The notes under the pieces were generated by a model. The model worked only from the letters and a program-made list of their open reading frames with translations, ran no database searches and was not told where the DNA came from. A stretch of 64,000 nucleotides of DNA from Psammoneis japonica (lineage: Eukaryota), in the NCBI GenBank assembly GCA_008632985.1, contig QPGO01000083.1, forward strand, positions 161,075-225,074. Reading direction: 5' to 3'. Position numbers and translations under genes: made by a program. Each line of letters begins with the position of its first letter. Positions within the stretch are counted from its first letter, which is position 1. This document shows, in pieces, positions 1,900 through 64,000 of the stretch.

Positions 1900-4480
1900 G
1901 CGAGCAACGAGCTGCGACAAAAGGCAGGCATGGCATGCACACAAGAGAAACTGGTGATCTTCCAACTTCCAATTGCCATCGCGCTGCTGAGACAGGCGGC
2001 CGGGCAGCCAGAACATGAAGTGGGGTGGTTGTTGCAGAGCAACAATCGTTCTCACACCACAACATCACCACTTGCTGGGGTTGCAGCACATGTCAGTGGC
2101 AGCCCTGGAATGAGCTTGTCTTCTTTGAGGATGGTTGAATCTGTCAAGTTAACAACAACACAGGCAGGGTGCTTGCATGGGCCATCCAGACCATCTGGTC
2201 CAAGTTTGTGATCACAAATGACACCCCAATGTTTTTCCCACAATGAAGTTGACAGGCAGCATGACATGAGCAGTGACAGCCAGGGCATCAATGGTGGGCA
2301 GACTGACATTGATTGGCACATGACCTGTGTTGCTGTTGGGACATTGGCGCACAATGTTGATGTGAGCAGCTGGTGGTTTGTTCAGCTGCTGGAGGCATTT
2401 CATCATTGTGATTGGTGTGGTCTGCTTCCAAGCAGGCATGACATGGAGTGCATCTCATTCAAGTGCCACTTGCTCAGCTGATGGCAGGACACTCAGTTGG
2501 CACCACAAGAGAACATCAGCGGCTTTGCAGTTCATGGCATCATTGCACATTTGCGGAATTGTGCCACGATGCTCAAGGTCACTGCCTCATCTCATTTGCT
2601 CTTCAAGAACAATGGCAAGGCTGTGAACAGGAGCATCAGCAAAAAACAACAGTTTGAGAAAGTTTTGAAATGCAATCAGACCACATGCACGTGCTGGCTC
2701 GACTTTCTTTGGAGCCTCTGAGTCAAATGTTGATTTTGTTGTTGCAACAGAAGGAATCTGTCCAAGGCTGCCACAGAAAGCAAAAGCTGGGACACCACCA
2801 CATGGATGATTGCCTGGAGCTGAAGGTGCCACAGGAGTTGCCTTTTTTGCTCTGCCATTGATGGCATTGATGTCAGGGGGTCAACACCATCAGCCAGAGG
2901 AGCTTGTGTCTCCTTTTGAGTTGACAGCCACACAAAGTTGGAAAGACCAGAGTCATGGAATCCTTGTTTGTCAAAAAGGCTTTGGCGTTCTGTGCAGATC
3001 TTGAGCTTCAGTTGGATGGTGGTGGGTGAACTTTCTTGCCAACTGGAATTTTGAAAGTGCACAGATTGGTGGAGCCAATGATGATGATGGCTGTGGTGCT
3101 GGTGGGAGTGGCACCAAGATCACATTCAATGGCACAGGACAATGGCCTCTTGGGCAATGCTTTGCACAGTCTTGATGCAAAAGGTCTTCCCTGTGCCAGG
3201 GTTTTTTGGCACTTTGAGCTGGAGAGACTGATGAGTGTCATCCCCCAATGCTTCTGTCCTTTTCTCTGGGTTGAGCAAGTTCTGCCAGTGCTTGCTGCAG
3301 TTGGATCCCCAGGCATTGCCCATTTGTTGCTGCAATGTTGCAGATGAAATGCTCTTGGAAAGGCAAGATGCAATCATGCTGGGTTTTGCATGCATGTCAA
3401 CAAAATCTCCATGAGAAAAAACAAAATTTTTGGCTTTGACTGGCTGGCTGTGGTTGGCTCAGGTTTGGGTCACTCAGTGTGTTGTGCAATCCTTGCATTT
3501 TCTGACATGCATGAGAGATGAGAGTTCCAGTCATTGACAGAGCATGGCAGGGCTGAAAAACTGCACACACAGTCCAGCCAAGAGTCTGAGAAGCTTCCAA
3601 AACTCAGCACCTCATTCTGTGTCTCAGCTCTTCTGGGTTGCTTGTGCACCACAATGACAATGTTGGCTCAACTTCTCTGGACTCTGGGTGAAAGCTCAAT
3701 GGCAACAGGGAGCTTCCAGGTTCTAAATGGCTTGTGGTGCCACCCAAAAACAACATCCTGCCATCATCTGGCAACTCTGAACAATGCCCTTTTTGTGTGG
3801 CAACAAGTGGTGCATCCCCCCCCCCCCCCCCTGCACCTGCAGGAGGGATCCAATGCAATCACTGGATCTCTCCCTGCAGCAGGAATCACCCTTGACCCAC
3901 AATTGACTTTCAGAAAAGTGTTCTCTCATTGGGTCTTTTCGCTGTCATTCCTGAGAGTCGTGTGCTTGTGTGTGCTTTTCCACCAAAAATGGGAATGGCA
4001 GCAGAACATTGAAGTTGCCCATTGAACGTACAATGTCTGTTGACATTGACGTTCACTTGAGAATTAAACAGCATCATTCTCATTTTGGGTGATGCGTGGA
4101 TTTGCGTGCAAAATTGAGAAGAGGGCTCCAATCTTCTTCTGATCCAGTGCACATGAAAACACCTTTTCCATCTGGAGTGATTCCCACTGTGGGGAGAGAT
4201 CCATGATCACCACATGATTGATCACAGGGCATTGAACTCTGCTCTTTTCCCACTCTCCAACCTGTCATTTTGCATTTGGCGGGCTGGGCTGGTGTGGACT
4301 GGGGTCACCTGGTTCTTCAGAAGTGTGCGGGGCTGCTGGGCAGAGCTGGGTTGAGCAACTCTTGCTGGGGAGTGCTTCAGTGCCTCTTACATCTGCAGTT
4401 GTTCACAAACACTCTCCTCTCAGGAAGCTGACAAATTCGTGTGCAATGTGGTCGATGCGTCAACAACGTCAAATCAAAAC
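1900..4480 (-). mobile_element. Decayed element with PIF1-family helicase remnant (Helitron/Helentron-like), TpA- and CpG-depleted
   Basis: Minus-strand fragments in PIF1 motif order: NPGTGKTF (Walker A, ~3181-3203), ATPTSTTAIIIIGST..TFKIP (APTG..AA..G.T-like), PCGGVPAFAFCGSLGQIPSV (FGG..GD..QLPPV-like), LAVTAHVML, GVICDH..GP..PACVVVNL. Many stops and frameshifts. Confidence 0.65.
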
Positions 4481-4704
4481 CAGCACCTCCAAAAATCTGC
4501 CGCTGCGCCGCGCGCGGCACCAGGCGAGCTATCGATCGCGCGCCCACCATGCGCCCCCGACGCAGTGTTGGTGAGCGGACGAGTGGATGGGCCATGGGCC
4601 GGCCATGCATCAATTCAGGTGACGGGTCTGCCACAAGCTTCGTTGTCGCTGTTCTTGGACAGTCTTTTACTCGTAACGCATTGGATTGTCGGTTTGAGTC
4701 TCGA

Positions 4705-5735
4705 ATGTCCCTGGCAAGATTTCTTGCGACAACAAGCATGGCCCTTTCAACCAACAGAAACGGCGTAGCCATGATTTTGTCCCCGGCAAAAACGTTGGAT
4801 ATGACGCCGCGTGAATCTGGAAATCTGGAATGGACGACGCCAAGCTGCGACGAGGAAAAGACACAGCAAGTTGCCAATGCAATGAAAAAGCAGAGTAAGA
4901 AGGATCTGATGAAATTGTTGGGAATATCAGCCAATCTGGCCGATAAATCTCACTCGGTACGTCGTAAGCAGCTCGATGCCATGTGAGCTACGCTGACCTC
5001 TGCCCATCTGTTGTTCTGACTTACTCGACCTCATTTTTCTTTCTTTCTTTAGTATTGGAGTTATTACGAGTGTAATCAAGCTGATCGAGACGAAACTGGC
5101 AAAAAACCATGCATCTATGCATTCAGCGGAATCGCATATCAGGGTCTCGAGTCGTCGTCGTGTTCCGAAGATGCAATTTCTTATCTTCAGAAAAACCTAC
5201 GAATACTGGATGCTCTTTATGGATCTTTGCTTCCTCTTGATGTTATTCAACCGTACCGGCTAGAGATGGGAACACGAAACGTTTTTGGGGATAAAAAGAA
5301 AATGTCAGATTTTTGGAAAGCATCAGTGACGGCGCAATTAGTCAAGGAACTGTCGCAGCGAGAAGACAAGATACTTGTCAATATAGCAAGTGACGAGTAC
5401 GCCAATGCGGTAGACTTTGTAGAGCTTGAATCCATTGGAACTAAAGTGATCAAGATTGTGTTTTGGGACGAAGGTCGAGTTGTAACAGTGCATGCTAAGC
5501 GAGCACGCGGTTTGATGGCGAGGTACTTGGCACACGAAAACGTTCAAACGATAGAGGACATTCAAAGTTTAATTACGAAGGATATGCCTTTGTGGCTGAA
5601 GAGTCGGATGACAACAAACTTGTGTTTAATCGAAAGAAGCAGAAACCCGCCAGAAAGACGACAAACAAGAGAGCTCAAAAGTCAACAGCAGCTGCTGCCG
5701 CTTCTGAAAACAAGAAACGGACTCGTAAAAAGTAA
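4705..5735 (+). CDS. yaaA: YaaA/UPF0246 (DUF328) peroxide-stress family protein
   Basis: Motifs ILSPAKTLD, LMKLLGIS..LA, AFSGIAYQGL, LRILDALYG.L.PLD.IQPYRLEMG, VNIASDEY, HAKRARGLMARY. In-frame intron 4957-5052. One T missing near 5568 would restore FNYEGYAF..LVFNR, stop at 5733-5735. Confidence 0.85.
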
Positions 5736-5952
5736 GCATTATTTGATGCCTGTTCAGCATTTCAGACCATGTGTAAGATGTGTTCATTTTATGAAAAGGT
5801 TGTTAGATCCTCCATGATCCTGTAATTCATTCTTTGGCTCTTATTCTGTATGCAATGCGTATTCAGGATCGCATCATCTTGTTACTGACGACACTGCATT
5901 AATAATCAAACAAGTAAGCGCCAGCACAACAACAAAGATCCAAGCGTCATTC

Positions 5953-8328
5953 TCAAAGGGATTCACCAATGCTAAACTGTCGAAGTCGCTGAGGTTTCAC
6001 CTTGGAAAAGTATCCAAGATTCTGAATGGCAATTTCTTGGTCATCTTCTTCACTTTCACCATAAATTGTGCCGTAAGCCTCGTGCCCGACATTGACGGTT
6101 TTCTTGGTTTGCACAGGACTAGTAGGCGATCCACTGCTGTCAAACGAGGAACCCGTCGAATGATGCGACTCGTGCGAGGACGCATGGCGTTTCACGGCAA
6201 TGTACTGTTGTGGTTTCATAATGTTTTGCAAGTCCAATAGAGTCTTCTCCAGCATGTGTACATAGCGCCTTGTCTGCCGATGCTTGCTGGAAACAGAATA
6301 TTGGAGACCATTGTCCTTGATAATATATCCAATGCCAAAGCCATCCTATGTTCACGGGAAGTACAAAGAAAGCAAGTGTGAGAGGAGGTAGACACAACTA
6401 ATGACGGAAAAATAGAGAAACGAGGAACGAACCTGCACAACCGGACCAAATCCAAAGAGACGCAAGGCGGGATTGCCACAATTGGATGTGGAAAGGACGG
6501 TATGGTTCAGGGTCATCCACGGTTTCGATTGAAAGAAACAAGGAACGTCCACGTCGTTCCGTTCGGCAATACACTTCAAGGCAAACAAGTGACGGTCAAC
6601 TCCCTTGCCAGCAGCAGATTCCTTGACGAGTCTCGAGTGTTCCTTAGTTGCTTTTCGAAGTGCCTCGAGTTTCGCCGCTTTTGTGGCATTGCTGTCCATC
6701 CACGTACGACAGAATGCAGCTGCCTCAGGCGTTACAGTTCTCATTGCCTCTGTTCGCCCGTGCAAGAATTGCTTGGTCAAGACCGGTTCATAGGTGCACA
6801 CAATCTTTCCGTACAAACGATAGTATGCTAGCAGCATGGACATTTGCACAAACGAGTCGGGGCTAAAGAAAGGAAGAACATAAGATTCAGATTGGCACGA
6901 CAGGTAAAAACTAAATCGATATCACAATGAGGCTCACCTCATGGAATTCGAGACAATAAGATGCTTTCCATACGTCTTGAACTCGAGATTCACGGTATCT
7001 GTGGAAATGATTTGGTCACCCAGCGCGGTCTCGGCAAAGTGAATGCGCTCCAGCACATCGTCGGGGAGTTCGAAAACGAGCTTTTTGGGATTCACATCCA
7101 ACGAAGCATTGCCGTGAGAGTCCAAATGATTGGCAGCTCGCTTGACGGTAGCATGAATGACGTGCGGAATCCGATCCCCGCCATAAATGAGTTTGGTAAT
7201 GGACCGAGCAAAGCACACCACCGTCTCGGCAAAGACATCGGATACAAACCGTAGTGCCGTGTGTCCGTCAATAGCCGAGTGCTCAAAGTTGACTCCGGCA
7301 GTGCCGTCTCCACACACAATGACTTGAAGTTTGTCATACCATCGATTGCAACACGTACCAACTTGTAAATCCTGTAGATTTTCGGTGGTTTCGATCCTGT
7401 ACGTGCCGTGCAGCATGTTGGCTGCGGCCCAATTGATATTGTCTGGAACAAACTCATCCAGAACCAGTACAAACAAGGCCGAATCTACAATTTGCAACGA
7501 CTCGCTGTTGCCTTCACACGCGCTCACCAAGGAAGCACGGGCGGCAGCCCACTCGTTGCGTGGAAGACTCGTAAGCACCCCCAAGGCTTCTTTGCAACTC
7601 TCATCCAGTGCCGTTTCGGCAGAATTGGTTTGAATCGCGGTAAGAATTTCCATAATGTCATGTTCATTGACCGCCACAGTCCCATCCTCGGGCCACAGCG
7701 CTTGAAAGTAATACAATTGATTGCGACTCATGACGGCAACATGAGTGCTTTCCGGAAAGACAGCCACACAATCCTTATTGTCCGTGTGTGGCTGACGACA
7801 ACTCCCAAAGAGCGCCTTGAATTGATCCATACAGAGCGGTGCACCGCGAAAGACATCCGGCTTGAGTGCTTCGTGCTTGAGCAGCGACGCCAACTTGACG
7901 GCTGCCAGTGTAATGCTGGCGGCACGTTTGATTTGATTCTTGGCAATCTTGGCGTCGGGGCCATCCTCTAGAACAAAAAAGGGATTGAGATTGAGAACGA
8001 CACTCTGATCGGGAGCCAAGTACGAATCGTTCCAGAACTCTTCTACATAACTTCCGATCCGTCCAGACTCTCGTCCTTCTTTTTCGTATTCTTCCAAAAG
8101 CACCTGTAGTTTTTCTAAATCGGCTCTGGATTCTTCGATTATGCGTTTTGTTTCTTGTCGTTCCGCTTCGTTTTGTAATGCCGAAACGACTTTTGGGAAT
8201 TTTGTCAAGGTTTCGTCTAGAGTCGGGATGGGAAGTCGTGGAAGATTTTCTTGCGCACCGTAGGTTACACTTGACATGCGTCGAAACGACAAGCGTCTAT
8301 GGCTGACACTGCCATTTTGCTGTGTCAT
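5953..8328 (-). CDS. Choline/carnitine O-acyltransferase family protein (3 exons)
   Basis: Motifs LPRLPIPTLDETL, PLCMDQF, NRWYDK, GVNFEHSAIDG (catalytic His), TYEPVLTKQFLHGRTE, GKGVDRHLFAL, LSTSNCG, FGFGPVV. Introns at about 6865-6938 and 6348-6432. Confidence 0.92.
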
Positions 8329-8645
8329 TGTGATTTTCGAGAATGTTGCCGTAGTCGCTTTGGTTTTTAGAAGGGACAATGCATAAAACAATGGCTCTTG
8401 CAACAACAGCTAAGAGAAGAACAGAATGAAAATGGGATTGCAACGAGATTGGATCTTTATGTATGTGTGTGCGAATCCGAACAGAATGACACCCTGAGCG
8501 AAACGGCCGGCCGGGCGAGCGACGGAAGTTCCCGCACTTTTTGTCGCGCGAAATGCGCGTGACTTCCCTCCGACATGACGTCACGCCACGAAAATGAAAA
8601 AAGCAACGCCAGCATCCAGCATCCCCCAAAAAGCACGCGACGACA

Positions 8646-9353
8646 ATGGCAGCCATCAACGGCAATGCGGGTACTGCTTTGGAACGATCCGAGAGCATTT
8701 GTGCTCACATGAATACGGATCACTCTGTCACGGTACATCAAATGTGTCTCGAATCGCTACCAAAAGAGCAACGCAAGGGGACAACAATTTCCAATTACAA
8801 GCTCAAGTCCGTGTCGCGTTCGGCGTGCACCTTGAGTTTTGTCGTTTGCAATGGCGACTTGTGCGACATGAAAACCACGACACTGCCCTTTGTACCGCCA
8901 TTAAAAGATGAAAGTGAAGTGAAATCACGGCTGATTCAGATTCATCAGCAAGTCATGACACCCAAGGTGCATTGGTTAGTGACGGATCCGCTGGCCTTGC
9001 TGATTCTGGTGGTTTGCACCGGTTTGGGATATGCCACGCTTGTGCTTGGAATTGACAATCTCACAAGCCTCATTGAAGAATCTCCGAGCATCAACAATAT
9101 TTGTACAAGCATCTACGGTTCTGCCGCCACGTTTGGCGTGTGGGTCAAGTGGGCTTGGTGGTTCACCGTGGTGGCTCACGGTGCCGAAGCGTGGTATGTC
9201 GTCTATCAAAGCAAGACTACGTTAAAGCTCAAGACGAAACCGACGTTGCAATGGGCGTTTTTGATTTCGTGTGTTGGGTATCCTGTTTTTACGCGATTTA
9301 CAAAGTTGGTAAAGATGCAAAAGGCTGCGAAAGCAAATAAGAAACAAAAGTAG
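8646..9353 (+). CDS. DUF2470 domain + TMEM254-like membrane protein
   Basis: N-terminal ICAHMNTDH (HMNxDH) motif. C-terminal hydrophobic helices with HGAEAWY. Intact 235-aa ORF with ordinary composition. Confidence 0.7.
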   Translation: MAAINGNAGTALERSESICAHMNTDHSVTVHQMCLESLPKEQRKGTTISNYKLKSVSRSACTLSFVVCNGDLCDMKTTTLPFVPPLKDESEVKSRLIQIHQQVMTPKVHWLVTDPLALLILVVCTGLGYATLVLGIDNLTSLIEESPSINNICTSIYGSAATFGVWVKWAWWFTVVAHGAEAWYVVYQSKTTLKLKTKPTLQWAFLISCVGYPVFTRFTKLVKMQKAAKANKKQK

Positions 9354-9367
9354 AATGAAGAATCTCG

Positions 9368-10874
9368 TCACGTAGATTTGTTCTTTTGCTCCGCCACGAC
9401 ATCTTCCTCTTCTCGATTGATCCATAGCTTTGCATCATCGTCCGTAAATTCATCACACGCGGGAACTATCGACTCGTCTGGTATTTGAGAGTTGAGCCAA
9501 TGTCGAAACTCGTCAAAGGTCTTGTCCACTTGTCCACGTTTGTACTTTGTCCAATCCACACCATGGACATTTATTGGCTTTTCATGGTGCCACTTGCCGT
9601 CTTCATCCTTTTTCGGTAATAGCTCCTTTGGACCGTCGTTCCATTCCATGCGTGATTTCGAATCTAAATGTGGATAATGAACGACAAAGCCACCGCCCAA
9701 TTGTGAAAATTGATACCCGACCCTTCTCATGTGCATGACAGTCTGAAAAAAAAAAAAAAATCATGAGCAATTGGTTCAATCACCATACAGAACACGGATA
9801 TTGACTCCTCACCGTCATTTTGTTCTTGCCATAGCCCGAAAACTCTTCATGAAACGGTGGTAAATCATGACAATACCGAAACACCATGTACGGTTCATAC
9901 CGATTACTTCGTATACAGGGTATATCAATCACATCTGCGGCATGCTGCTTGAACCACGTGGCATACAGCGTCGATCCGTGTCCTCCACGATTGGTAGGAT
10001 CAAAGGGAAACACCTGCTTGTCCTTGACAAGTTGCTTGAGTTGCTCCTTGTTGCGTGGCATTTTGGGAATGTTCTTTTGGGGACATTCCTTCCATTCGCG
10101 GCATTGTCGATTCAATTGAAAGGCCGGAACGACCAAGAGGCGCTTTGGATCCATGGCCAAAGTTTGCTTGACATCGTCGTATTGTAAATACTCGTGCAAG
10201 TCTTCCGACTCCCAAAAGTCCACGTCCGAGTACATGACATGAGTGGTTGTTACCATGGAGAGAGCCTTGTTTCTCAAGACATTGACTGGATAGTCGACTG
10301 CAGCATACAAGTCAGAATTGAGGACTTGAACAGAGAGTGTGTCGGGACTGCAACCCAAGTCTTCCAGCTTTTGTCGGATGTCTTGTTCGGATTGATTGGT
10401 AAAGACCGCGACTGAGATTGGTGAAATCGATCCCCATCGATCACAATGATGCTCCATCATCCATATGCGATCCTCGGATAATTGCGTAACAAGCGTATAC
10501 GTGATGTCCTCTGGTTCCATTTCCGTACAGTCTGGAGCATTGACAGTAAAACGTGTAAAGTCGTGTGGCGGAGTCAAGTCGCGGTGCTGCTGCTGACTAC
10601 TAGTACTGCCCCCGCCGCCAAGCCGTGATTTCTGCTGTTTAGATGTTGTTTTCAAGAGGAAAACAAGCGAGACTCCCACCATGATCAGTACAGTTACAGC
10701 AAGTGACCATATAATGACTTGACGAGAAGCATCCATTCGAGCTTTGCTGCGCAGCCTCGGTTTACGATGTCGTCGTCGAACAATGTGTTGGTGTGTTTCA
10801 GAGGAATGACCGTTTGAATGAACTGGCAGCTCATTGCTGCCTCTTCTTCGCATATTAACATCATGGCCCGACAT
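9368..10874 (-). CDS. Glycosyltransferase family 49 (LARGE/B4GAT1-like), type II membrane protein, 2 exons
   Basis: N-terminal TM, then TLVTQLS.DR, YPVNVLRN, DVDF, LVVPAF, YEPY, FSGYGKNK. Second exon has FVVHYPH. Intron at about 9744-9811. Confidence 0.85.
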
Positions 10875-11124
10875 TGTTATCAGGAAATGCTCTAGCAAGT
10901 AAATAAAAGGCTTGTAAGTAGAGAAGTAGGTGTCGAACAACTGAGGAGTCTTTCAGCATGCGTTCGCCGCCATGGTATGAACATGCGTGGCAAGTGGCAA
11001 AGCCGCAATAAGCTGCAAAGCGTGATTGGTAAATCAAAAATAGGCTCATGTACTCTTCATGACGAACCTTCACGTTACGTTACGTGCGTGCGTGCGTACG
11101 GTACCATACGCCGTACGCGCAAAC

Positions 11125-12764: not shown

Positions 12765-13015
12765 AAATGCTGGTGATGCAAGCTGGCAGCAGATCTCATC
12801 TGCGAACGGACTGAAAATCTCTACCGTGCACTGACCATCGTACGAAGATTTGTCAATCTGCCACATTCAACTTTGACACCAAAAAACGACGCACCACCAT
12901 GGCACATCAAACTTGGAAGCCTGCCATTCTCTGCAGCTGTGACGATCTGATGCTCGAAACTTGGTGGCATCGTGGAACACTCTCTGTGGTGCTTGTTGAA
13001 TTTTTCTGGTTTGAA

Positions 13016-16539: not shown

Positions 16540-16636
16540 TGCTTTGGCAACAGCATGCCTCACATTTCTGGAGAATGGCGTGCGTAAATTGCCTGGAGCA
16601 TGTTTCATGAAGCTCACCACAACCAGTCAAGGTCAA

Positions 16637-44479: not shown

Positions 44480-44485
44480 CTGCCA

Positions 44486-52200: not shown

Positions 52201-55200
52201 TTCAGACCCTGCATCATGAGCGCAAGCTCCTCTTGAGAAATGAGCGAGAATGGCCATTTTTGGCGCCTCTCTTTGGTTGCCCACTTGGCATTGCCAACAA
52301 ATCTTGAACCAAACTTCACTCACAGTTTCTTCACTCTTCAACCACAAAACCAGGTTCAACTTTTTGTTGGCTTCTTTGTGGCTGGGGTCACTGTTGCAGG
52401 CACAAATGGTGGGCACATGCCATGTGGCTGCTTGGCAACAAGAGTGTGATGCCAAGCATGTGCTGCACACCAAGGAGCCAAGCAGCCCAGCCCAGCTTTG
52501 AATGGAGCCCCAGGACAGCAGCCAACTCTGGGTGATCTCAGCATGGTGTGCTTGTTTGGGCTGTGCTGCACTCACCCCACAGTGCTCTGTGTTGTGGTGG
52601 CTTGTTGTGCAAGCCGTGTGGCTGAAGAGCCAGCAGCCAGCCAGGGCCCATCTTGCAAAGGCCACAAATGTTGACCCTGTGCAAAGCTGTGTGAGGGGCA
52701 GGCACAGGGATTTGCAATGATGGCTTCACAGCCATTGGCCCCAAGTTGGCATTTGATTGGGATCCAGTGCTGAGGGGCTGTGAAGTGTGGGGTTGGGAGC
52801 CCAGCCAGCTCGCACTCTCTTTGTTGTCACAAAGTGCTGCCACAGCTGTCTTTGCATTGCAGCCAGCCAGGTGCGGTTGACCCCAAGTTGGCACTTGATT
52901 TGGAGTGACTGCCAAGGAGCTGTGAAGTGTGGGGTTGGGCAGTCCAGCCAGCTCACACTCTTTGCTGACAGCAGAAAGCACTGTCGCAGCTGTCCTTGCG
53001 CACACATGGCCAGAGCAGCCTTGGCACATCCTGCTGACAAAACTGACAAAGACAGCGACTCTTGTGGTTGAGCCACTCAGCACGCAGGAGATCTGGGCAC
53101 ACTCCTGGGAAGTCAAACAGGAAGGAGGGCTGAGCATTGCCGCCAGTGCCAGGCACAAATGTCAGCTTGTCTTGAGAGAGATTCGAGCCCACACAGCCCC
53201 GCGTTGGGCATCTTTGCTGGCAAAATGGAAAGCATTCTTGAGCACATTCTGGCATGTGGGCAGCACTGTCACCAAGAGGGCTGCTCTGCAGAGGAAGAGG
53301 GAAATGGGCAACAACATTTTGCAAGAACTGTTTTGTGTCAATGGTCGGGTGGGATGTGGCAGCATCATCTGGACTTTGATGGAGCATTTGGCGGACAAAG
53401 CTTGAGCACAGAGAGTTGTCCACTCAAGCTCCACAAGTGGCACTTTCCAAAGGTGACACCACACATGGGCCATGTGTTCATGCATCAACATGCCTCAAGC
53501 TGCAAGTCACACAAAAAAACCACCACCAACCTTTCAGCCAACCACCATCATGGACAGAACAGGTCAAGAGGTTCAAAACAAGAGCGATTCATTGACTCTC
53601 TTCTGGTTCCATGCATTCAAGAGCTTCTTGTCCTTCTCAAATGTTTGTTGTGCATTGTTGTCTCTTTTAATTCAAGTGCAAAGAGGAGTCACTTTTCTTG
53701 TTTCCATCTCTTGAGATGTTGTGGTTGTTGAGTGATGCAACTTTTGTTGTCACATTTTTGGAAATGTTGGCAAACCCGATCACTGCTTGATTGTCAACCC
53801 ATTTGCTGTTTTAAGTCTCCATGGCATAAAATGCCATAATTCCAGAGCCCTCAATTGTTTCATCAAACGCAGTGCTTTGAAACACGTCCAACATCAACTC
53901 GACTCAGTTGAAATCCCAGTTTGTGGGCGATGAAAAATCACGAATGTCAAACAAATGGCTACTTTCGACATCAAGATCCCCGAGTTCAATCCAAATGTGA
54001 CGGTACGCCTCACAGCTTATGGCCATGACACATACAAGCATGCCTCATTGTCATCGCGTCGAGCACTCGTATCGAAAATGCCGATAGATCAAAGTTCAGG
54101 AAAAGGATGGAATACAAATTCATTTGTGAATTCATTAGTGGCATTGGCGTAATGATATTTACGGCAGAAGCAATCTAAAATCCTTATTCATCATTGACAT
54201 TTCTGTATTGCTCAGATTTTGAAATCTGACCACTACCGTTAAGCATTTAGCTGTCTTTGTATGGAAGTGGAAATGACACTTAACGATTTACACTAACCAT
54301 TTAGCTTTCTTTGTGTCGAAGTGGAAATGACACTTAACGATTTACACTAACCATTTAGCTTACTTTGGCTCGAAGTCAGACAAAGAGATTGGGCTATGGG
54401 CTTGTGGTTAACCAGCCACGAGCATGAAATCTTTACCGGTGGCGGCAATTTTTTCATGTTCGTGGCCGGTTAAAGGAAAAGAGAAAAAAAGAGGGGAATC
54501 AACCGTTGAACACACACACACAATTGACCATGCAACCATGGCCAGAGTTGCACTGGCTTCTTTTGATCCAGGGTGGTTGCTGCAGGTGCAAAGAGTGGGG
54601 CACATTGCAGTTGCAGGAGGGTGACAATGTGGCACTGAGTGTGTGCCACCAGGCTGAGCAGCCCAGCTTGGGTGTCAGCCAAGCCCTGCCAGGCCAGCTG
54701 CCCTGGCTCCAGCTGCTCTTCCCAGTGTGCGTGAGTTATTGAAGGAGCACCACATTGACTCAAAGGCTGTGTTTTAAGTGGGGCAGAGAGAAAAAACTGT
54801 TGTCTTGGCTGGTGCTTGCTTCAGACCCTGCATCATGAGCGCAAGCTCCTCTTGAGAAATGAGCGAGAATGGCCATTTTTGGCGCCTCTCTTTGGTTGCC
54901 CACTTGGCATTGCCAACAAATCTTGAACCAAACTTCACTCACAGTTTCTTCACTCTTCAACCACAAAACCAGGTTCAACTTTTTGTTGGCTTCTTTGTGG
55001 CTGGGGTCACTGTTGCAGGCACAAATGGTGGGCACATGCCATGTGGCTGCTTGGCAACAAGAGTGTGATGCCAAGCATGTGCTGCACACCAAGGAGCCAA
55101 GCAGCCCAGCCCAGCTTTGAATGGAGCCCCAGGACAGCAGCCAACTCTGGGTGATCTCAGCATGGTCAATTGTGTGTGTGTGTTCAACGGTTGATTCCCC

Positions 55201-57854
55201 TCTTTTTTTCTCTTTTCCTTTAACCGGCCACGAACATGAAAAAATTGCCGCCACCGGTAAAGATTTCATGCTCGTGGCTGGTTAACGACAAGCCCATAGC
55301 CCAATCTCTTTGTCTGACTTCGAGCCAAAGTAAGCTAAATGGCCAGTGTAAATCGTTAAGTGTCATTTCCACTTCGACACAAAGAAAGCTAAATGGTCAG
55401 TGTAAATCGTTAAGTGTCGTTTCCACTTCGACACAAAGAAAGCTAAATGCTTGACGGTGGTGGTCAGATTTCAAATTCTGAGCAATACAGAAATGTCAAT
55501 GATGAACAAGGATTTTTGATCGCTTCTGCCGTAAATGTCATTACGCCAATGCCACTCTAGTGAATGCACAAATGAATTTGCATTCCATCCTTTTCCTGAA
55601 CTTTGATCTATCGGCATTTTCGATACGAGCATACGCGATGACAACAATGAGGCATGCTTGTATGTGTCATGGCCATAAGCTGTGAGGCGCACCGTCACAT
55701 TTGGATTGAACTCGGGGATCTTGATGTCGAAAGCAGCCATTTGTTTGACATTCGTGATTTTTCATCGCCCACAAACTGGGATTTCAACTGAGTCGAGTTG
55801 ATGTTGGACGTGTTTCAAAGCACTGCGTTTGATGAAACAATTGAGGGCTCTGGAATTATGGCATTTTATGCCATGGAGACTTAAAACAGTAAATGGGTTG
55901 ACAGTCAAGCAGTGATCGGGTTTGCCAACATTTCCAAAAATGTGACAAGCAACAAAAATTGCATCACTCAACAACCAACAACATCTCAAGAGACAGAAAC
56001 AAGAAAAGTGACTCCTCTTTGCACTTAAATTAAAAGAGACAACAATGCACAACAAACATTTGAAAAGGACAAGAACAAGCTCTTGAATGCATGAAACAAG
56101 AAGAGAGTCAATGAAGCAATCACTCTTGTTTCGAACCTCTTGACCTGTTCTGTCCATGATGGTGGTTGGTTGAGAAAGGTTGGTGGTGGTTTTTTTGTGA
56201 CTTGCAGCTTGAGGCATGTTGATGCATGAACACATTGGTGTCACCTTTGAAATGTGCCACTTGTGGAGCTTGAGTGGACAGCTCTCTGTGCTCAAGCTTT
56301 GTCCACCAAATGCTCCGTCAAAGTCCAGATGCTGCCCGCCCCCCATCCCACCCGACCATTGACACAAAACAGTTCTTGCAAAATGTTGTTGCCTGTTTCC
56401 CTCTTCCTCTGCAGAGCAGCTCTCTTGGTGACAGTGCTGCCCACATCCCAGAATGTGCTCAAGAATGCTTTCTAACTTGCCAGCCAAGACACCCAACTCG
56501 GGGCTGTGTGGGCTCAAATCTCTCTCAAGACAAGCTGACATTTGTGCCTGGCACTGGCGGCAATGCTGCACCCTCCTTCCCATTTGACTTCCCAGGAGTG
56601 TGCCCAGACCTCCTGCATGCCAGGTGGCTCAACCACAAGAGTCGCCATCTTTGCCAGCTTTGTCAGCAGGATGTGCCAAGGCTGCTCTGGCCATGTGTGC
56701 ACCTGGCTGGCACCACAATGCAAGGACAGCTGCGACAGCACTTTCTGCTGTCAGCAAAGAGTGTGAGCTGGCTGGACTGCCCAACCCCACACTTCACAGC
56801 TCCTTGGCAGTCACTCTAAATCACGTGCCAACTTGGGGTCAACCACACCTGGCTGGCTGCAATGCAAAGACAGCTGTGGCAGTGCTTTGTGGCAGAGTGT
56901 GAGCTCCTGGCTGGGCTCCCAACCCCACACTTCACAGCCCCTCAGCAATGGCTCCCAACCAAATGACAACTTGGACCAATGGCTGTGAAGTGCCATTGTT
57001 TCAATTCCTGTGCCTGGCCCCTCACACAGCTTTGCACAGGGTCAACATGTGTGTGTGGCCTTTGCAAGATGGGCCCCTGGCTGGCTGCTGACTCAGCCAC
57101 GGCTTGCAACAAGAAGCCACCACAACACAGAGCATTGTGGGGTGAGTGCAGCACAGCTTGAACAAGCAAACCATGCTGAGATCACCCAGAGTTGGCTGCT
57201 GTCCTGGGGCTCCATTCAAAGCTGAGCTGGGCTGCTTGGCTCCTTGGTGTGCAGCACATGCTTGGCATCACATTCTTGTTGCCAAGCAGCCACATGGCAT
57301 GTGCCCACCATTTGTGTCTGCAACAGCGACCCCAGCCACAAAGAAAAAGTTGAACCTGGTTTTGTGGTTGAAGAGTGAAGAAACTGTGAGTGAAGTTGGG
57401 TTCAAGATTTGTTGGCAATGCCAAGTGGGCAGCCAAAGAGAGGCACCAAAAATGGCTGTTCTTGCTCATTTCTCAAGAGGAGCTTGCACTCATGATGCAG
57501 GGTCTGAAGCAAGCACCAGTCAAGATGACAGTTTTTTCTCTCTGCCCCACTTGAAACACAGCCTTTGAGTCAATGTGGTGCTCCTTCAACAATTCGCACA
57601 CACACTGGGATGAGCAGAGCTGGAGCCAGGGCAGCTGGCCTGGCAGGGCTTGGCTGACACCCAAGCTGGGCTGCTCAGCTTGGTGGCACACACTCAGTGT
57701 CACATCTCTTTGCACCTGCAGCAACCACCCTGGACCAAAAGAAGCCAGTGCAACTCTGGCCCTGGTTGCATGGTCAATTGTGTGTGTGTTCAATGGTCGA
57801 ATCCCCTCTTTTTTTCTCTTTTCCTTCAACCGGCCACGAACATGAAAAATTGCC
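49204..57854. mobile_element. Composite array of a ~2.6-kb TIR element (Merlin-like termini): two tandem units, a partial unit, an inversion and a diverged inverted unit
   Basis: 8-bp TSD GAATTCTT (49196-49203 / 57855-57862). Units at 49204-51818, 51825-54437, 54444-55166 (partial), inverted 55160-55249 and inverted 55256-57854. TIRs GGCAATTTTTTCATGTTCGTGGCCGGTTAA / GGTAAAGATTTCATGCTCGTGGCTGGTTAA. No transposase could be confidently read. Confidence 0.85.
51625..51757 (+). repeat. Subterminal 54-bp tandem repeat (~2.5 copies), also present in the other full units
   Basis: CATTTAGCT..GAAGTGGAAATGACACTTAACGATTTACACTAAC starting at 51625, 51679 and 51733. Confidence 0.9.
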
Positions 57855-58819
57855 GAATTCTTCGGATTCTTGGAATTGTCATTGAGGACATGAGAGGTTG
57901 TGGGGACATCCTAAAAAATCGATAAATTCCCTGCGACGGGTGCGTGGCACGGTTTTTCAGGAGAGCTCGAAAGTTCTGAAAAATTGGGATTGCCGGCGTG
58001 GCATGTTCAAAAATGCATTCAGTTGCACACAAAGACAATTTGTCGTGAATTCTACACGAAAAAGTCACACTGGGGAAAACACATCAAACAACAAGTGAGT
58101 TTGTGTGATGCGCTGTCATGGCGATAAATTGGAAAAAAGAGTGTCCGAGCACCTCGCCACAGCCCCAAAAATGGCATGAGACATCAAACACAACGGTCAT
58201 CCGCGTCACTGGTGCGGCGGCCATGCTGCTCAGCCGCCACAATGCCAGCCCGGCGGCAGGGCCCTGTGCACGTACAGGCAATGCAGCATGCAACAGCACA
58301 CACCCACACCCACAAAGAAAGACAAGTGGTCAATGCTCCCCGCAGGCCTGGTTCAGGATTTTCTGCTGTGCGAGAAACGCACACTGGCAGTGCGACACGC
58401 GCCTCATTCAATCATTGCCAAAAAGCGGCGACATGGTGGTGGTGCATTGTTGCAGCGATGGCAATGACAGTGCACTCCCCAGCATTCGGGAGTGAAGCAA
58501 GAGGTCTGCACATGTCATGTGGACAATTTTGTGTTGTGCAGATGTCTGCACAATCAGTGCGTTGCATGCATTTCTGCGCAACATCTCTTGCACTACAAAT
58601 TCGGAAACAATTGCGCGATTTCTCGCCCAAAGCAATGATTGGAGCTTTGCGCAGATGTCCATTGAAGCAAAAGAGGGGAAGGAAAGACACCAGCAAACAC
58701 CACAGCCTTGAACGGATCGAGCGCCAATGGCGGCGTTCTTCGCTGCAGCTCGTCGCCGCCTGCCGAGGCTGCAGCAGCTGCTGCAATTTTGAACAAAGAG
58801 CAACACATGCCTGCACTGC

Positions 58820-59660
58820 CACCAGCATGGCTGCCACCCCTCCTGGTGGTGCCATGGGTGCCAGTGCACCTCCAGCACCCCCAAAAACCTGTCAAGAAAA
58901 ATGGACAGCTGACAGCGACCACCTTGGCAGGGCATGTTCCGAGCTCCTGCCACCAATGCCACAACCCCGTTGGACTCAGACGCCACTCTGGATCATGTGC
59001 TGGCACCCAGCAACGTCATGCCCAAAGCATTTTTGGCTCTGGCCAACGACAGCGCCGGTGGGTTGCAAGTCACCTGCCTGCACCGCCCTTCAGCCTGCAC
59101 CCATGACCCATTTGCCACGTCACCCTGGGGTGGAGGAGTCTTCTGCTTCCAAGGGAGTGCACCACCCGGGAACTTCATCAGTGTCCCCAGCGTGCCTGAT
59201 GACCCCTTTGAGATGGCAGGACCACAAGCAGTTCCAACAGTTGCCAACATGGCGGCGTTGGAAGGGGCGCTTCTCAACAAAGAGGATTTGACCCCCCCCT
59301 CAAACTGACAGCGCACCCCGGACACCGAGACTGCCATGGTTCGAACCATGGCTCAATCCCCACACACTTGCATGTGTCTGGTGCTCACCCACAATCTGAC
59401 CCCTCTGCAAGCCTGGAGAGAGCCAGGGGGCACCATTCAGAATGACGGCAGAGCCAGGAACCTGGCGCCACTCATCGACTGGTTGCAAGTTGCCCTCACC
59501 TCCAACACAGCCGCTGCGCTTGATCCTGTCCACTGCATGGATGATCGAGTTGCCACCTTGCCACCATTGGCAGTGGATGCTGGGTTGCAAGAACATTGGT
59601 GGAAAATCCTCCAACAAGACCTGCCAGCCTTGGACACTTGCTGCGAGTTCTGCATGTGAA
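58820..59660 (+). mobile_element. Decayed gag-like fragment, probably Ngaro/DIRS-type
   Basis: PKAFLALA..LQVTCLHRPS....SPWGGGVFCFQG..LAPLIDWLQVA resembles the 37900-38400 region (IQVTHCVS..QPWDNK) upstream of the Ngaro-type RT. Confidence 0.4.
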
Positions 59661-62600
59661 TGTGAGCTTGTCAAAATGCACAGTTTTGCGCACCCAAACA
59701 AATTTTCCTCCACATGCACGTGAAGGTCTGCAGAAAAGTGAGCAAACACACTGAAAACATTTTCAATGCTGACAAAAAAAATGGCTGTTTGATGGCTCGA
59801 ACAGGCAACTGCCGAAGTGCTTCTCAAAAGTGGTCCAGATTGCATGATCCACAGATGCACACTGTCAATCAACATGAGTGCACTGTTGAGTGAACAGAGC
59901 TTGCCATCCAACAAATGGAGTCGCTGTGCACAAAATGGAACACTCCATCTGTGCCACATTGTCTGCATGGGTTTGTGCACTTTCAGTCATGTCTCGCACA
60001 CAAAAAAGTGGGTGCCCGCCAAAGCAAGCTCTTTTGCCTCAAAAATGTGTTGAGATGATGGGGATCTTGCCATTTGCTTCCACACTTGTGGCCCTCTTTC
60101 TTTGCTGTCTGTCCTGAATGGCATCCCACTCAAACAGAGCTCCATCAGCAAAGGAAGTTGACGACACATTGCTGGAGAAGGTGCACTCTTTTTTGTCAGA
60201 ATGGCAACACTTTCTGGCTCCTGGTAACTTTGTTCTGTGTTGGAGGTCTCTGACTGGCTGTTGGGGAGACCATTTTGAAAAATGGGTGCAGCCCACCAAT
60301 GGGGCATTGCAAGATGAATCCCGCTGTCTGCTGGCATGTTCAATTGCACCTTCAGAGCCAGCTGCCACTTCTGCTGCCAGTGGAGCATCACACTGTGTTT
60401 TAAAGAGAATGAACAAAACAAGACGCCATTGCAAAGAACACACGAGCAAGGCTGTTCCTGAGCTTGTGGTGATGTGCAACTTGGAGCACCCTGGGCAAAA
60501 ACAGGGTCGTCCTTTTCAGGCCAGACACAGCTGTCACAGCTGTTGCCTTCCCAAGCAATGCAGAAAATCTTGGTCCTGATTTCTTGCCATGCCCACCTGG
60601 TTGGTCTCTCTTCCACAATTTCATCCAACTTCAGTTGTCATGGACTGACCCTCATTGTGATTTCAAATCCACCAAACTTGTCCACTGCAAGTTGCACGGC
60701 CAGGTGCACTGTGACAAATTGGCCGGGTGGTTGTTCAGGTGGCTTGGCTTTGGGTGATTCACAGTCCTCCTTCATGTCTTGGAGGCATGATGAAAGTGTT
60801 GCTCAAGAGAAAATAAAGAATGCACCCTTGTCAGGAATGTCTTGCATGAACTTGATGATTTTGGGAGCAAACTTGGGTGGAGTCAATGTGTGCTTCACCC
60901 TGTCACTCAGCAGCTGGACCAGTCATTTGCAGACAGTGTTGGAGTCACATCACACTCACATCGGCACAAAAAGCTCATCTCCCCCACTTGCATTCAAAAG
61001 AGAGTTTGCAGCTTGCCTTCTGGTCCTTGATGGTCCATGTGAAAGTTGGCAAACAGAAGGTCGAGGGCAAGTGTGTGGTTGACAACCTTCTGCTCCACAA
61101 ATTCACAGAGCTCTTTGTTGTCCATTGGAGCTGCTGCATCATCATGTCCCTGTCTTTTCACTTGCTGCTGGACTTAAAACAACATCCTGGACTGTTCCAA
61201 GATGGCGTCAATGATCAAAAAGCAGATTTTTCCAAGAGCACAAGACACAGAATGTGGCAGCCATGGAGGCTGCCCATCTTCAGCTCTGCCAGAATCCAAG
61301 CCAGCCATTCACAGAGAATGAAGTGGAGCTCATTGAGTTTCTCTTTGCATTCTTTGTTGGTGGTTTCTTCCAACAGCTCATCAAGGTGCATCTTGATTTG
61401 CATGTTCTTGATGATTCTTGGACTGAAAGACAGTGAGGCATTTTGGCCTGCTTGCAGTCACACTCCCCAGACACAATCGCAATGATTTGCGGAACATGTG
61501 CTCTGCTTCATTTTGAGTTCACACCATCAGCAGGGAAATGAACAGCACTGCATCAGCAGCTGATGGCGAACATGCTGGTGGCCCTCATCAACAGCCCTGA
61601 TGTGGTGCTTGACTTGCCCCTTGGAGTGGACTTTTGCACCAGGCTCCAGCTGGACCACCTTGCTTGTGCCCCATGCCTGGTGCAATGTGTGTCCCTGGAT
61701 CACAATGGTCCAGAAGCTGGGCCCCTGGCTTTGGATTGTGCTGCTGAATCCAGCCAGCAGCTTGATCAGCATCCCAAGCAGGGTTCCTTGGCAGGACTCA
61801 CCTCACAGGTGTGCCAGCTTGGGTCCGTTTTTGCTGAGTTGGATGCCGGGCGGGTCAAGCCAGGCCAGGTTCAAGGCATCAACATTGACCGGCCGCTTGC
61901 TGCCATTGTCGATCGCACCGCACATGATGATGGCGATGACAGTGCACTCCCCAGCGTTTGGGAGTGAAGAGGTCTCCACAACATGCAGACAATTTTACAT
62001 TGCGCAGAAATCTGCGCGCAATCAGTGGGCAGCATGTTTCTGCGCAATGTCTCTCGTAACTTCCGACCCAACTCCCTGAATGAAGGGAGAAAGAGTTCAG
62101 ATGCAATGCTCAGGTCTGCTCTCTAGCTGCCAGAGAGCAGGCATGTAGACCTCGGTGTCAAGAGGGCGCGGTCCAGAGATCGCCTGGTGCACTTTTTGTG
62201 CAGAAACTGCACAAGAGCCAAGCACGTGCATTCCCACACAGATGCAGCACAAAAACACAAAGCGGCGCTCCATCACGACTCCTCGCGACACACCACCTGA
62301 CAACAATCCATCAAAATGGCGCCATCCACATCTTTCTGCAGCTCCTCTTTCACTTGCCCCGATTTCTCCAAAAGGGCCCAGGGGCAGCTCGCACACTTGT
62401 GTCATGACAGAACAGTGCAAACACAAGTTGTTTTTTCATTCCAAAATCTCAGAATGGTGCAGTGCAACAGGGGTTGTCAAAGCAAACTCGCATGTTGGCT
62501 GCATCAGCCAAATCAACACCTTGTTTGCTGTTCACTCTGGAGCAACAACAGAGATGCAGCACCCTGACAAAATGCGCTCTGCACTCGACAAATTGCGAAG

Positions 62601-63390
62601 CTCAAAATTCTTGTTGGAAGACACTCTGGATCTGCTTTAGAGACTTGACACAATGACTCATTTGTCCTGTCATTCACCCTCTTAATTTGTTGCATTGGCC
62701 AACAACTGGGGTGAGTGAGTCACATTTTCCAGGTCACAAACTGCAGCACAGCCAAAAGAAGCAATCTGTGCCTTTGGAACCATCATGATGCACTGGTCTG
62801 CCAAACAAAACTCCGCATCACCACCCAAAGATGGGGGGAGAACTCTTGTCAAAAGTGTGCAATGATGTGTTTGATCTGTTGAGAGCTTGCCCAGCTTAAG
62901 ACATCACAGCTCCAAGTTGCCACATTTGTTGTGAACTCTTCCTGATGCTGTGTCTGTGGCTTGGCTTCGTTGTTGAATTGCCGTGGCCATCGCACTTCAG
63001 AAATGACACTTGACAAGAAAAAGTGTCTCTGGGACACCTCACGACAACGGAGACCCTGCAGAACAAAAGAACAATGCAGAAAGAGAAAACACATGCAAGT
63101 TGGATGGTNNNNNNNNNNNNNNNNNNNNNNNNNNNNNNNNNNNNNNNNNNNNNNNNNNNNNNNNNNNNNNNNNNNNNNNNNNNNNNNNNNNNNNNNNNNN
63201 NNNNNNNNNNNNNNNNNNNNNNNNNNNNNNNNNNNNNNNNNNNNNNNNNNNNNNNNNNNNNNNNNNNNNNNNNNNNNNNNNNNNNNNNNNNNNNNNNNNN
63301 NNNNNNNNNNNNNNNNNNNNNNNNNNNNNNNNNNNNNNNNNNNNNNNNNNNNNNNNNNNNNNNNNNNNNNNNNNNNNNNNNNNNNNNNNN

Positions 63391-63425
<35 letters not shown>

Positions 63426-64000
63426 GCCTCAATGAAACACACAGCATGAGTGCATGAATGTGGCAATGCATGAGGTCGGTTGTGATGCAACAAAAGCAAT
63501 GTTGACAATGCGAACCTCCAGCAAGAATTTTCACCATCAGCTGCCCACATGAACCTGTGCGCTCTCAAGCTTGTCACACACCTTGTGCTGTGGCGTGCGA
63601 TGTTCCGTTGAGAGTGCACTGCAAAGTGCCTCAGAAACAACCACATTTTTGAAATCGGCAAAACGCCATTGTTCGTGTCATTTTGCGTGTTGTTTTGCGT
63701 TGAGAGCCAGAAAACACTCCCAAAATCTGTTCTGCAGGAAAAATGCACTGAACCCTCACAGATTTGGGTTGCACCAGGCCACGTGGAAAATGAGCGGGCC
63801 GAGAACTGTGGCGCACCCACTCAAATTTTATGCACATGAAGCTCACCAGTGTCTGAGCATTTTCTTTCTTCCGAATGCTGGGGAGTGGATGACAGTGACA
63901 TGTCTCGCTCAGAATCTTTTGTCATCACAAGAAAACCAGATCTGTGTTTAAAGTGCTGTCACTCCATTGCCAGCCAGGCCGGCACCGGCCGCCAACCCAC
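59660..64000. other. Further TpA/CpG-depleted decayed repeat block containing an assembly gap (N, 63109-63390)
   Basis: TG/CA-rich composition with Tyr-free spurious ORFs and a run of N. Confidence 0.65.
63391..63423. repeat. (AC)n microsatellite abutting the gap
   Basis: About 16 AC units directly after the N run. Confidence 0.95.

Follow-up and report, generated by a model that had tools for sequence, protein, structure and literature searches.

Transposons and other repeats in a 64,000-nucleotide stretch of nuclear DNA from the diatom Psammoneis japonica (assembly GCA_008632985.1, contig QPGO01000083.1, positions 161,075 to 225,074 of the forward strand; hereafter the window) have lost nearly all of their TpA dinucleotides, whereas the genes that lie between them have not. 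The locus therefore raises the question of what removes TpA, in which direction the change runs, at what stage in the life of an element it occurs and what decides which DNA is hit. We addressed this question using the window itself, relatives fetched for the elements it contains and the contigs of one sequencing sample. The answer that we consider probable is a targeted hypermutation of mobile and repeated DNA, which acts at the DNA level on TpA, changes A:T to G:C, is probably carried out by an adenine deaminase and is followed by CpG decay.

Two compositional states in one window

Over the whole window, the observed/expected (o/e) ratios are 0.26 for TA, 0.60 for CG, 1.55 for TG and 1.56 for CA, and across most of its length 250-bp bins contain 0-3 TA against 12-20 expected. 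A two-state hidden Markov model (HMM) run on the TA positions called depleted segments at 1853-4667, 11115-17516, 22073-34193, 37608-40322, 43064-45801, 47355-51192, 51853-53811 and 56032-64000. These agree closely with the TpA-poor domains that a sequence-only reading of the window had placed at 1.9-4.5, 11.1-17.4, 22.1-34.2, 37.8-40.3 and 43.1-64 kb, the last of which is interrupted by four TA-richer patches (45802-47354, 51193-51852 and two inside 53812-56031). Within individual depleted segments TA o/e is 0.02-0.12, and the longest run without any TA measures 1631 bp. When pooled, the depleted DNA (40.5 kb, 63% of the window) has o/e ratios of 0.07 for TA, 0.40 for CG, 1.74 for TG and 1.73 for CA, compared with 0.55, 0.98, 1.22 and 1.25 in the normal DNA (23.4 kb), while the remaining dinucleotides differ by no more than 0.16 between the two states. 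The process is thus close to saturation, with 93% of the expected TA gone from depleted DNA.

Pfam-recognizable host genes fall in the normal segments, and the earlier description of gene regions as normal in both TA and CG, with sharp transitions to their surroundings, holds on both counts; genes and repeats do not resemble each other in TpA. The borders are sharp to less than 20 bp. At 40322/40323, the 700 bp listed before 40322 contain no TA and the next 165 bp contain 17; elsewhere, TA steps are spaced 5-25 bp apart as far as 11114, and the one after that lies at 11403.

Counts per kb show where the missing dinucleotides went. Depleted DNA (40,275 bp, 165 TA in total) contains 4.1 TA, 25.6 CG, 107.1 TG and 109.5 CA per kb, and the gene islands contain 39.6, 59.2, 73.4 and 75.6, which corresponds to changes of -35.5, -33.6, +33.7 and +33.9, respectively. 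The sum of the four steps is 246.3 per kb in depleted DNA versus 247.8 in gene islands, indicating that the lost TA and CG equal the gained TG and CA (69.1 per kb lost, 35.5 as TA and 33.6 as CG, versus 67.6 per kb gained) and bearing out the proposal of the sequence-only reading that both losses converge on TG/CA. GC content remains nearly constant, as the TA and CG conversions pull in opposite ways.

The CG component has the properties of ordinary 5-methylcytosine decay, which converts CpG to TpG/CpA in the same domains: the deficit of 33.6 per kb is balanced by TG/CA, and Arg is replaced by Gln, Cys, Trp or His at CGN codons of the polyprotein of a Copia element described below. Methylation of transposons is reported as established in diatoms (PMC9998398). 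Such decay explains roughly half of what TG and CA have gained (33.6 of 69.1 per kb) and no loss of TpA, and here it is the slower of the two processes. CpG o/e is graded: the two elements that can be identified, which look young, stand at 0.84 and 0.73, and the rest of the depleted DNA at 0.15-0.44, in line with the earlier remark that the oldest-looking parts are also CpG-poor. TA o/e, in contrast, is already 0.11-0.12 in both identifiable elements. Near-total loss of TA at a CpG o/e of 0.73-0.84 means that the TpA process is fast and CpG decay slow, and TpA loss precedes CpG loss.

A further consequence concerns reading frames. Counting both strands, depleted DNA has 52.3 stop triplets per kb and normal DNA 70.5 per kb, and TAA and TAG together fall to 2.9 per kb from 17.8 per kb, leaving TGA as nearly the sole stop. 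Because TAA and TAG are lost, long spurious open reading frames (ORFs) appear on all six frames of the depleted domains, and the window as a whole contains 81 stop-to-stop ORFs of at least 150 residues. Gene finders and repeat finders will mis-annotate genomes of this kind.

Direction, timing and sequence context of TpA loss

A record of the change is kept by a Copia-type long terminal repeat (LTR) retrotransposon at 42148-49063 on the plus strand. Its gag ATG lies at 42990 and its polyprotein ORF at 44480-48619; the class is given by a match to RVT_2 (PF07727, E 1.6e-10), a gag-pol polyprotein and 176-bp direct LTRs with TG...CA ends. AGTG is found on both sides of the element, and a purine run precedes the 3' LTR. 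The polyprotein is 57-65% identical over residues 780-1379 to the 120 relatives listed, which include one from Fragilaria crotonensis. The 5' LTR (42148-42323) is unmutated and has 18 TA, and so are the leader and the first ~70 bp of gag (42324-43063); the bin 42001-43000, which also covers the 5' LTR, has a TA o/e of 0.98 and a CG o/e of 1.58. The body (43064-48887) is hypermutated, with TA o/e of 0.11, then 0.41 (45802-47354), then 0.06, and the 3' LTR (48888-49063) is saturated, with no TA left.

The insertion seems recent. In sequencing run X1, one contig passes from 42147 to 49066 through just two intervening letters, at a depth of 24.9 compared with ~62 in the unique flanks, and may represent an allele without the Copia element, heterozygous or polymorphic in the sample. 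Another contig joins 48947 to 42216, starting like the mutated 3' LTR and continuing like the unmutated 5' LTR; a further Copia copy appears to have an LTR that is mutated along part of its length only.

As composition alone cannot separate a change of TA to TG from one of TG to TA, we used the coding sequence to determine the direction. The polyprotein was aligned with 60 full-length homologues, and columns in which at least 80% agree were inspected. Of 25 conserved Tyr columns, only 6 still carry Tyr in the element, 13 carrying Cys (TGY) and 6 His (CAY), while conserved columns of His (15/15), Cys (8/8), Trp (17/18) and Gly (50/52) are retained. The catalytic YVDD box now reads HVDD. Tyr makes up 0.58% of the polyprotein versus 3.07-5.0% in 78 homologues, and Cys (3.12%) and His (4.64%) exceed the homologue maxima of 2.35% and 3.96%. 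Recurrent changes of Ile to Thr (ACA) or Met (ATG), Val to Ala (GCA), Leu to Pro (CCA), Thr to Ala, Arg to Gly and Met to Val are what conversion of a TA within a codon, or across the junction of two codons, would yield. The loss of conserved Tyr to Cys and His fixes the direction as TA to TG/CA and not TG to TA, as would be produced by repeat-induced point mutation (RIP). The frame of the element is still open because loss of TA removes TAA and TAG and creates no new in-frame stop.

The two LTRs of an element are identical at integration, and their comparison dates the change relative to insertion. In purine/pyrimidine code the Copia pair is still 100% identical, but 21 of 176 positions differ: 16 are TA in the 5' LTR and TG in the 3' LTR, 2 are TA and CA, 1 is CG and CA, and 2 are T>C changes beside a hit. 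None of the 21 is a transversion, and all but one of these transitions (20) are A>G or T>C; 18 of 18 TA were converted, and TpA is nearly the exclusive site of change. The 18 ancestral TA of the 3' LTR are now 16 TG followed by 2 CA, i.e., 16 consecutive A>G changes on the plus strand, including all 9 sites with strand-neutral flanks, before the last two switch strand. Since the LTRs were identical at integration and now hold 18 versus 0 TA, the change took place in DNA after insertion. Dating by LTR divergence would be badly wrong in such a case, with the pair 12% different at 0 transversions.

These data bear directly on whether the copy could have arrived already mutated, through editing of a retrotransposition intermediate, either RNA (by an ADAR/ADAT-like enzyme) or single-stranded cDNA (by an APOBEC3-like enzyme acting on adenine). 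The element looks recent yet is heavily mutated, and 16 of 18 hits in the 3' LTR lie on one strand, as such editing would allow; the spared 5' end and the uneven density of hits also recall the single-strandedness gradients of edited retroviral cDNA. However, edited RNA would give identical LTRs, which is not what the pair shows, and editing of minus-strand cDNA predicts plus-strand T>C in the 3' LTR, where the 16 are A>G. We return to this possibility with the other repeats below.

The LTR pair is equally informative on error-prone repair, in which methylated repeats would draw in an enzyme like polymerase eta, prone to errors at A following A or T, each time deaminated 5-methylcytosine is repaired, as would happen frequently. 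The depleted domains are also decaying at CpG and presumably methylated, and polymerase eta has a WA preference, both of which suit this idea. Conversion of every TA site without any background change in 176 bp, on the other hand, is far above polymerase error rates, AA and TT are not depleted (o/e 1.19 and 1.23 versus 1.13 and 1.18 in normal DNA), and almost all TA has gone from elements whose CpG remains at 0.73-0.84, which places the loss before the CpG decay that would have to trigger it. We therefore regard error-prone repair as very unlikely.

To place the element among its kin, we examined 80 metagenome loci encoding Copia relatives, which were picked by tblastn score and are thus biased to well-preserved copies. 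Their TA o/e is 0.45-0.92 (median 0.72), and none of the 80 contains a TpA-poor tract, each 1-kb stretch having at least 14 TA and no TA-free run exceeding 285 bp. TpA loss is therefore neither intrinsic to the Copia family nor universal in diatoms. Three of the loci (L072, L045 and L042) have CpG o/e of 0.01-0.10 with TA still at 0.45-0.79 (L072: CG 0.01, TA 0.47), so their organisms have CpG decay without the TpA process.

The relatives also help in judging whether any mutator is needed at all, as opposed to a compositional preference, selection that disfavors UpA in the RNA of the elements, or a systematic artefact of base calling or assembly where bases are modified. Avoidance of UpA is widespread in RNA, even the normal DNA of the window has a TA o/e of just 0.55, and the sequencing runs that we found are probably those used for the assembly, which leaves room for an artefact. 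Selection, however, would not destroy conserved residues such as 19 of 25 Tyr or turn YVDD into HVDD; 18 of 18 sites are hit in non-coding LTR DNA; the relatives keep a TA o/e of 0.45-0.92; and an artefact would not give clean, site-specific TG/CA, CpG decay and an exact mass balance. An explanation without a mutator thus appears extremely improbable.

Targeted hypermutation at TpA further depends on the neighboring bases. The 165 TA that survive in depleted DNA are enriched in TTAA (31), CTAA (21) and TTAG (16), while ATAT (1), ATAC (1), ATAG (1) and GTAT (2) together contribute 5 of 165; the gene islands contain 53, 51, 40 and 61 of the latter four, respectively. The target is T-A-(not A) or, on the opposite strand, (not T)-T-A, and TAA is a poor target.

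The base that is attacked could be the thymine. Because TA is palindromic, all sequence results, including the flank effect, fit equally well with (not T)-T-A in which T is mutated, for instance if a TET/JBP-type dioxygenase made 5-hydroxymethyluracil (5hmU) at TpA in silenced repeats and mispairing or faulty repair led to T>C. A precedent exists in dinoflagellates, which like diatoms belong to the Stramenopiles, Alveolates and Rhizaria (SAR): there, 5hmU is reported to be enriched mainly at repeats, to aid transposon silencing and to prefer T in TA and TC (PMC11572971). In contrast to that pattern, TC steps are not depleted here (o/e 0.98 in depleted versus 1.09 in normal DNA), and 5hmU is presented there as an epigenetic mark and not as a mutator; that it could drive near-complete T>C change is a step that we infer. 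On balance we view a thymine modifier as unlikely.

Two other candidates were set aside. Eukaryotic N6-methyladenine (6mA) is found at ApT, near active genes, and AT o/e is 0.87 in depleted versus 0.94 in normal DNA; 6mA at TpA as the target was dropped. A TA-cutting nuclease with mutagenic repair was also considered and dropped.

Other repeats, spared parts and the choice of target

The second identifiable element, at 12787-18154 on the plus strand, is a probable DNA transposon. It is bounded by terminal inverted repeats (TIRs) of ~80-150 bp (12787-12930 versus the reverse complement of 18010-18154), whose outer ~80 bp differ by two transitions and two short gaps between the copies. An ORF of ~1000 residues with an N-terminal Cys-rich finger (13444-16431) matches the metagenome homologue P0246 over these coordinates (tblastn E 2.7e-90). 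The element is depleted of TpA over 12787-17516 with CpG kept, and its right end is unmutated. At the 8 columns in which Tyr is conserved in this ORF, 0 Tyr remain (4 His, 2 Cys, 1 Met and 1 Phe), demonstrating that the same damage occurs in a second, unrelated element family and that the process is not limited to retroelements.

The protein family itself is found in metagenomes (P0241-P0265), one relative coming from a word-indexed search and 24 from a representative search. No Pfam family was detected in 11 homologues, a profile of the family searched against PDB sequences gave only zinc-finger noise (E of at least 0.11), and an Atlas search gave a weak, sub-threshold lead to DUF6589 (0.84); the ORF may represent an undescribed transposase family. 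In tblastn comparisons with the window, queries from intact Copia homologues (4) and from relatives of the ORF in the TIR element (5) located a single copy of each element, P0241 having no match at E 1e-3.

A third affected repeat is an 8.65-kb composite at 49204-57853, in which a 2621-bp unit is repeated in tandem at 99.9% identity and an inverted arm matches at 91%. Apart from the islands described below, the composite is depleted of TpA. It is inserted in a copy of element X (49064-49203 plus 57854-58358), a repeat recognized by self-comparison whose other copy lies at 12097-12766. Summed contig depths of 1000-7900 identify the composite as a very high-copy family, and it has no recognizable protein domain. 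It contains an island of ~660 bp with normal TA and CpG (51193-51852), with twins at ~53812-54450 and 55250-56031. The island in the inverted arm has lost 10 TA (7 to TG, 3 to CA) that the other arm keeps, with 0 losses in the reverse direction, indicating that mutation continued after the duplication. Elsewhere in the arms, 13 sites are TG in one arm and CA in the other. Despite these changes the arms are still 91% identical, or 95.6% when transitions are ignored, and the earlier statement that TA and CG loss erases homology goes too far. When contigs from other copies are set against the window, transitions (439) far outnumber transversions (95), with recurrent adjacent double changes between CA and TG. 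The islands also contain 54-bp tandem repeats, at 51605-51757, 54224-54376 and 55317-55469.

Taken with the LTR comparison, these repeats argue against editing of retrotransposition intermediates, as a TIR-flanked non-retro element and unclassified repeats are affected to the same extent and one arm of an inverted duplication gained its 10 additional hits in place. We consider such editing an improbable explanation. The proposal of the sequence-only reading that the process is independent of the replication intermediate of any one class is upheld by the LTRs, the TIR element and the inverted arm alike. Of the four classes of transposable element (TE) that it had listed as affected, Copia (through RVT_2) and a TIR element, of unassigned family, were recovered, and PIF1 and Ngaro were not. 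A Pfam scan of 253 stop-free ORFs of the depleted domains (103 of 113 with at least 110 residues and 150 of 157 with 65-109 residues; 10 near-identical ORFs of the second tandem copy at 51854-55281 were left out) gave no PIF1 helicase, tyrosine recombinase or second reverse transcriptase, and in these 253 together with 34 long ORFs the RVT_2 of the Copia element was the sole match among the TE classes named. Heavy mutation could hide PIF1 or Ngaro domains.

The sequence-only reading had suggested that targeting would depend on chromatin or repeat status, and the spared parts bear on that possibility. The unmutated parts are the Copia 5' end (42148-43063), 640 bp at the right end of the TIR element (17517-18154) and the 660-bp islands of the composite. 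Summed contig depth is 475-900 over the Copia element, including its spared end, and 3783 over the composite island. All mutated DNA is multi-copy, yet 42148-43063 and 51193-51852 are equally multi-copy and spared; as spared parts are as multi-copy as their mutated neighbors, copy number alone probably does not set the target. Borders that are sharp to the base pair argue against a diffuse chromatin gradient. The spared ends of the Copia and TIR elements each face a gene island, and that of Copia is promoter-proximal, which would suit a shielding effect of chromatin that is open or unmethylated; the sharp edges would fit equally with action in tracts or with gene conversion at a later time.

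Several points weigh against targeted hypermutation as we describe it, or limit the data on which it is based. Reconstruction of the Copia pol region supports a TpA-directed change, with 77 transitions, of which 46 are at TpA, 17 at CpG and 14 at other sites (A>G or T>C make up 55 of the 77, 46 of these 55 lie at TpA, and CpG decay explains 17 of the remaining 22), but it also gave 34 transversions, meaning that the consensus of the 60 relatives is not the true ancestor, and the assignment of mutational paths favors the TpA path where several fit. Avoidance of a following A is also seen where the ancestral state could be inferred (64 sites), the changed A preceding C in 24 cases, T in 21, G in 18 and A in 1, a count that is biased by Tyr codons (TAY), unlike that of the surviving TA. 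The TpA changes in pol are interleaved between strands (27 sense, 19 antisense; 28 runs versus 23.3 expected), and in the old domains TG and CA show no significant strand clustering (z of -0.4 to -1.3 in 6 of 7 domains, and +2.9 in 43064-45801), so one-strand tracts are seen only in the 3' LTR. Most sites common to both inverted arms of the composite carry the same TG or CA, implying that much of the mutation was inherited from a mutated ancestor copy, and the mutated families remain multi-copy, with summed depths of 500-7900 versus ~60 in unique DNA, implying that mutated DNA kept spreading. The unmutated Copia 5' end could have been restored by an intact copy, through recombination or gene conversion. 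Finally, the contigs come from one sample, which is probably the source of the assembly, and are not independent of it.

Candidate enzymes, known systems and neighboring features

The proposed mechanism would start with the recruitment of a DNA-acting enzyme to silenced or foreign DNA, most likely one that deaminates adenine to inosine, which is then read as G, and that belongs with ADAT2/TadA or has a deaminase fold of another kind. In the palindromic 5'-TA-3' step, a hit on the top-strand A would give TG and a hit on the bottom-strand A would give CA. The enzyme would act in tracts on one strand per event, the youngest tract being the 3' LTR with its 16 consecutive hits, and repeated, overlapping rounds would randomize the strand in old DNA. 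A slower second process, the ordinary decay of CpG to TpG/CpA in methylated DNA, would follow, both losses ending in TG/CA. The role of the first process would be irreversible transposon inactivation, such as the destruction of Copia Tyr residues including that of the catalytic YVDD box. We lean, with some reserve, towards the more specific proposal that an enzymatic defense of the diatom lineage rewrites essentially every TpA of a silenced element soon after insertion, in sharp-ended tracts and with one end spared.

The tRNA deaminases ADAT2/TadA act in a U33-A34 context, which matches the T before the target A. ADAT2 has also been proposed for a comparable process by the authors of a study of the rhizarian alga Bigelowiella natans (Mettrop et al., 2026, bioRxiv 10.64898/2026.01.13.699255), and amphioxus ADAT2 is reported to deaminate DNA (PMC10354150). 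Further candidates are deaminases described as restricted to stramenopiles, some fused to SAM and Tudor domains and others linked to a Rossmann domain (Iyer et al. 2011, PMC3239186).

The Bigelowiella preprint provides the closest precedent. In mutation-accumulation lines, 231 of 302 new mutations fell in two integrated viral regions, where the A>G and T>C changes were all at TpA, at a rate of ~6e-7 per site per generation; the inserts, of giant-virus or virophage origin, are single-copy and have a TpA o/e of 0.45. TpA-poor, CpA+TpG-rich clusters are reported from the same genome, where coding sequences with little TpA carry reverse transcriptase and DDE domains more often than expected (bioRxiv 10.64898/2026.01.13.699255). 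The criteria used for those clusters (TpA o/e of at most 0.43, CpA+TpG of at least 1.52) select 32 of 64 one-kb bins in our window, including a run of 12 (counted by eye). The two cases share A>G/T>C change at TpA giving TpG/CpA, foreign or mobile DNA beside a normal genome, a TpA-poor trace and a SAR host. They differ in that live mutation was seen in Bigelowiella, whereas the window presents only the end state, at o/e 0.02-0.12 and on diatom transposons and repeats. Judged from its sequence traces, the window therefore probably records a process of this kind in a stramenopile, where it has struck transposons and reached saturation. New relative to the precedent are this saturation, the sharp borders, the spared ends, the avoidance of TAA and the order relative to CpG decay, which comes later; the last four are not in the main text of the preprint as available to us. 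We found no description of TpA loss in diatom repeats in the literature searched, which included a 2025 diatom TE preprint and covered few subscription journals.

Fungal RIP resembles the process in being an irreversible, transition-only and context-specific mutation of repeats and mobile DNA in place, possibly on one strand per event, which kills transposons and spares adjacent genes. Its chemistry, however, is the opposite: RIP changes C:G to T:A, mostly CpA to TpA, raising TpA and lowering GC content, whereas here TpA is destroyed and GC content is about unchanged, and here parts of multi-copy elements are spared. Editing by ADAR or APOBEC3 likewise yields clustered, strand-coherent transitions, made by a deaminase and fixed in genomic retroelement copies. 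In contrast to the changes in the window, such editing needs an RNA or cDNA intermediate and gives matching LTRs; APOBEC enzymes change C. ADAR favors U before the edited A (bioRxiv 10.64898/2026.01.13.699255), but its context is loose, whereas T is essentially absolute here.

If correct, these conclusions would extend a principle of genome defense from one 2026 preprint on a rhizarian alga to diatoms, which are major marine primary producers, and from integrated viruses to ordinary transposons. Together with Bigelowiella, they would suggest that a TA-specific mutator of DNA adenine (or thymine) is ancestral to SAR or has arisen repeatedly. Such a system would mirror fungal RIP, but directed at A:T, and would amount to a DNA base editor of natural origin that recognizes a dinucleotide; the enzyme, a TA-specific DNA adenine deaminase or thymine modifier, could be of interest for base editing. 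With saturation here and none in the 80 Copia relatives, comparison of gene content between diatoms that do and do not carry the mark could single it out.

The remaining parts of the window fall into gene islands and unclassified repeats. The island at 4668-11114 has normal dinucleotides and carries, by Pfam, a YaaA-like gene, a carnitine acetyltransferase gene (minus strand, 6352-8409) whose best named relatives are from diatoms (48-69% identity), a DUF2470 gene and a GT49 gene, and the island at 34194-37607 encodes an FG-GAP repeat protein on the plus strand. Among the depleted domains, 1853-4667 is unclassified old repeat DNA (TA o/e 0.03, CG 0.28) whose ORFs have no Pfam match, and 11115-12786 is repeat DNA that includes the second copy of element X. 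The largest and oldest-looking domain, 22073-34193, is also unclassified, with no Pfam family and o/e ratios of 0.06 for TA, 0.19 for CG, 1.86 for TG and 1.87 for CA. A domain at 37608-40322 (TA 0.08, CG 0.39) lies between two genes and ends at the sharp right border described above.

Depleted repeat DNA also extends from 56032 to the end of the window at 64000 (TA 0.05, CG 0.34). It holds an assembly gap of 282 N (63109-63390), which is flanked by a (TG)n/(CA)n microsatellite. In the same fully depleted DNA, a 91-residue ORF at 61530-61802 on the minus strand matches Pfam DUF4437 (E 5.8e-7; 29.4 bits versus a cut-off of 24) and may be a captured or decayed fragment of a host gene.

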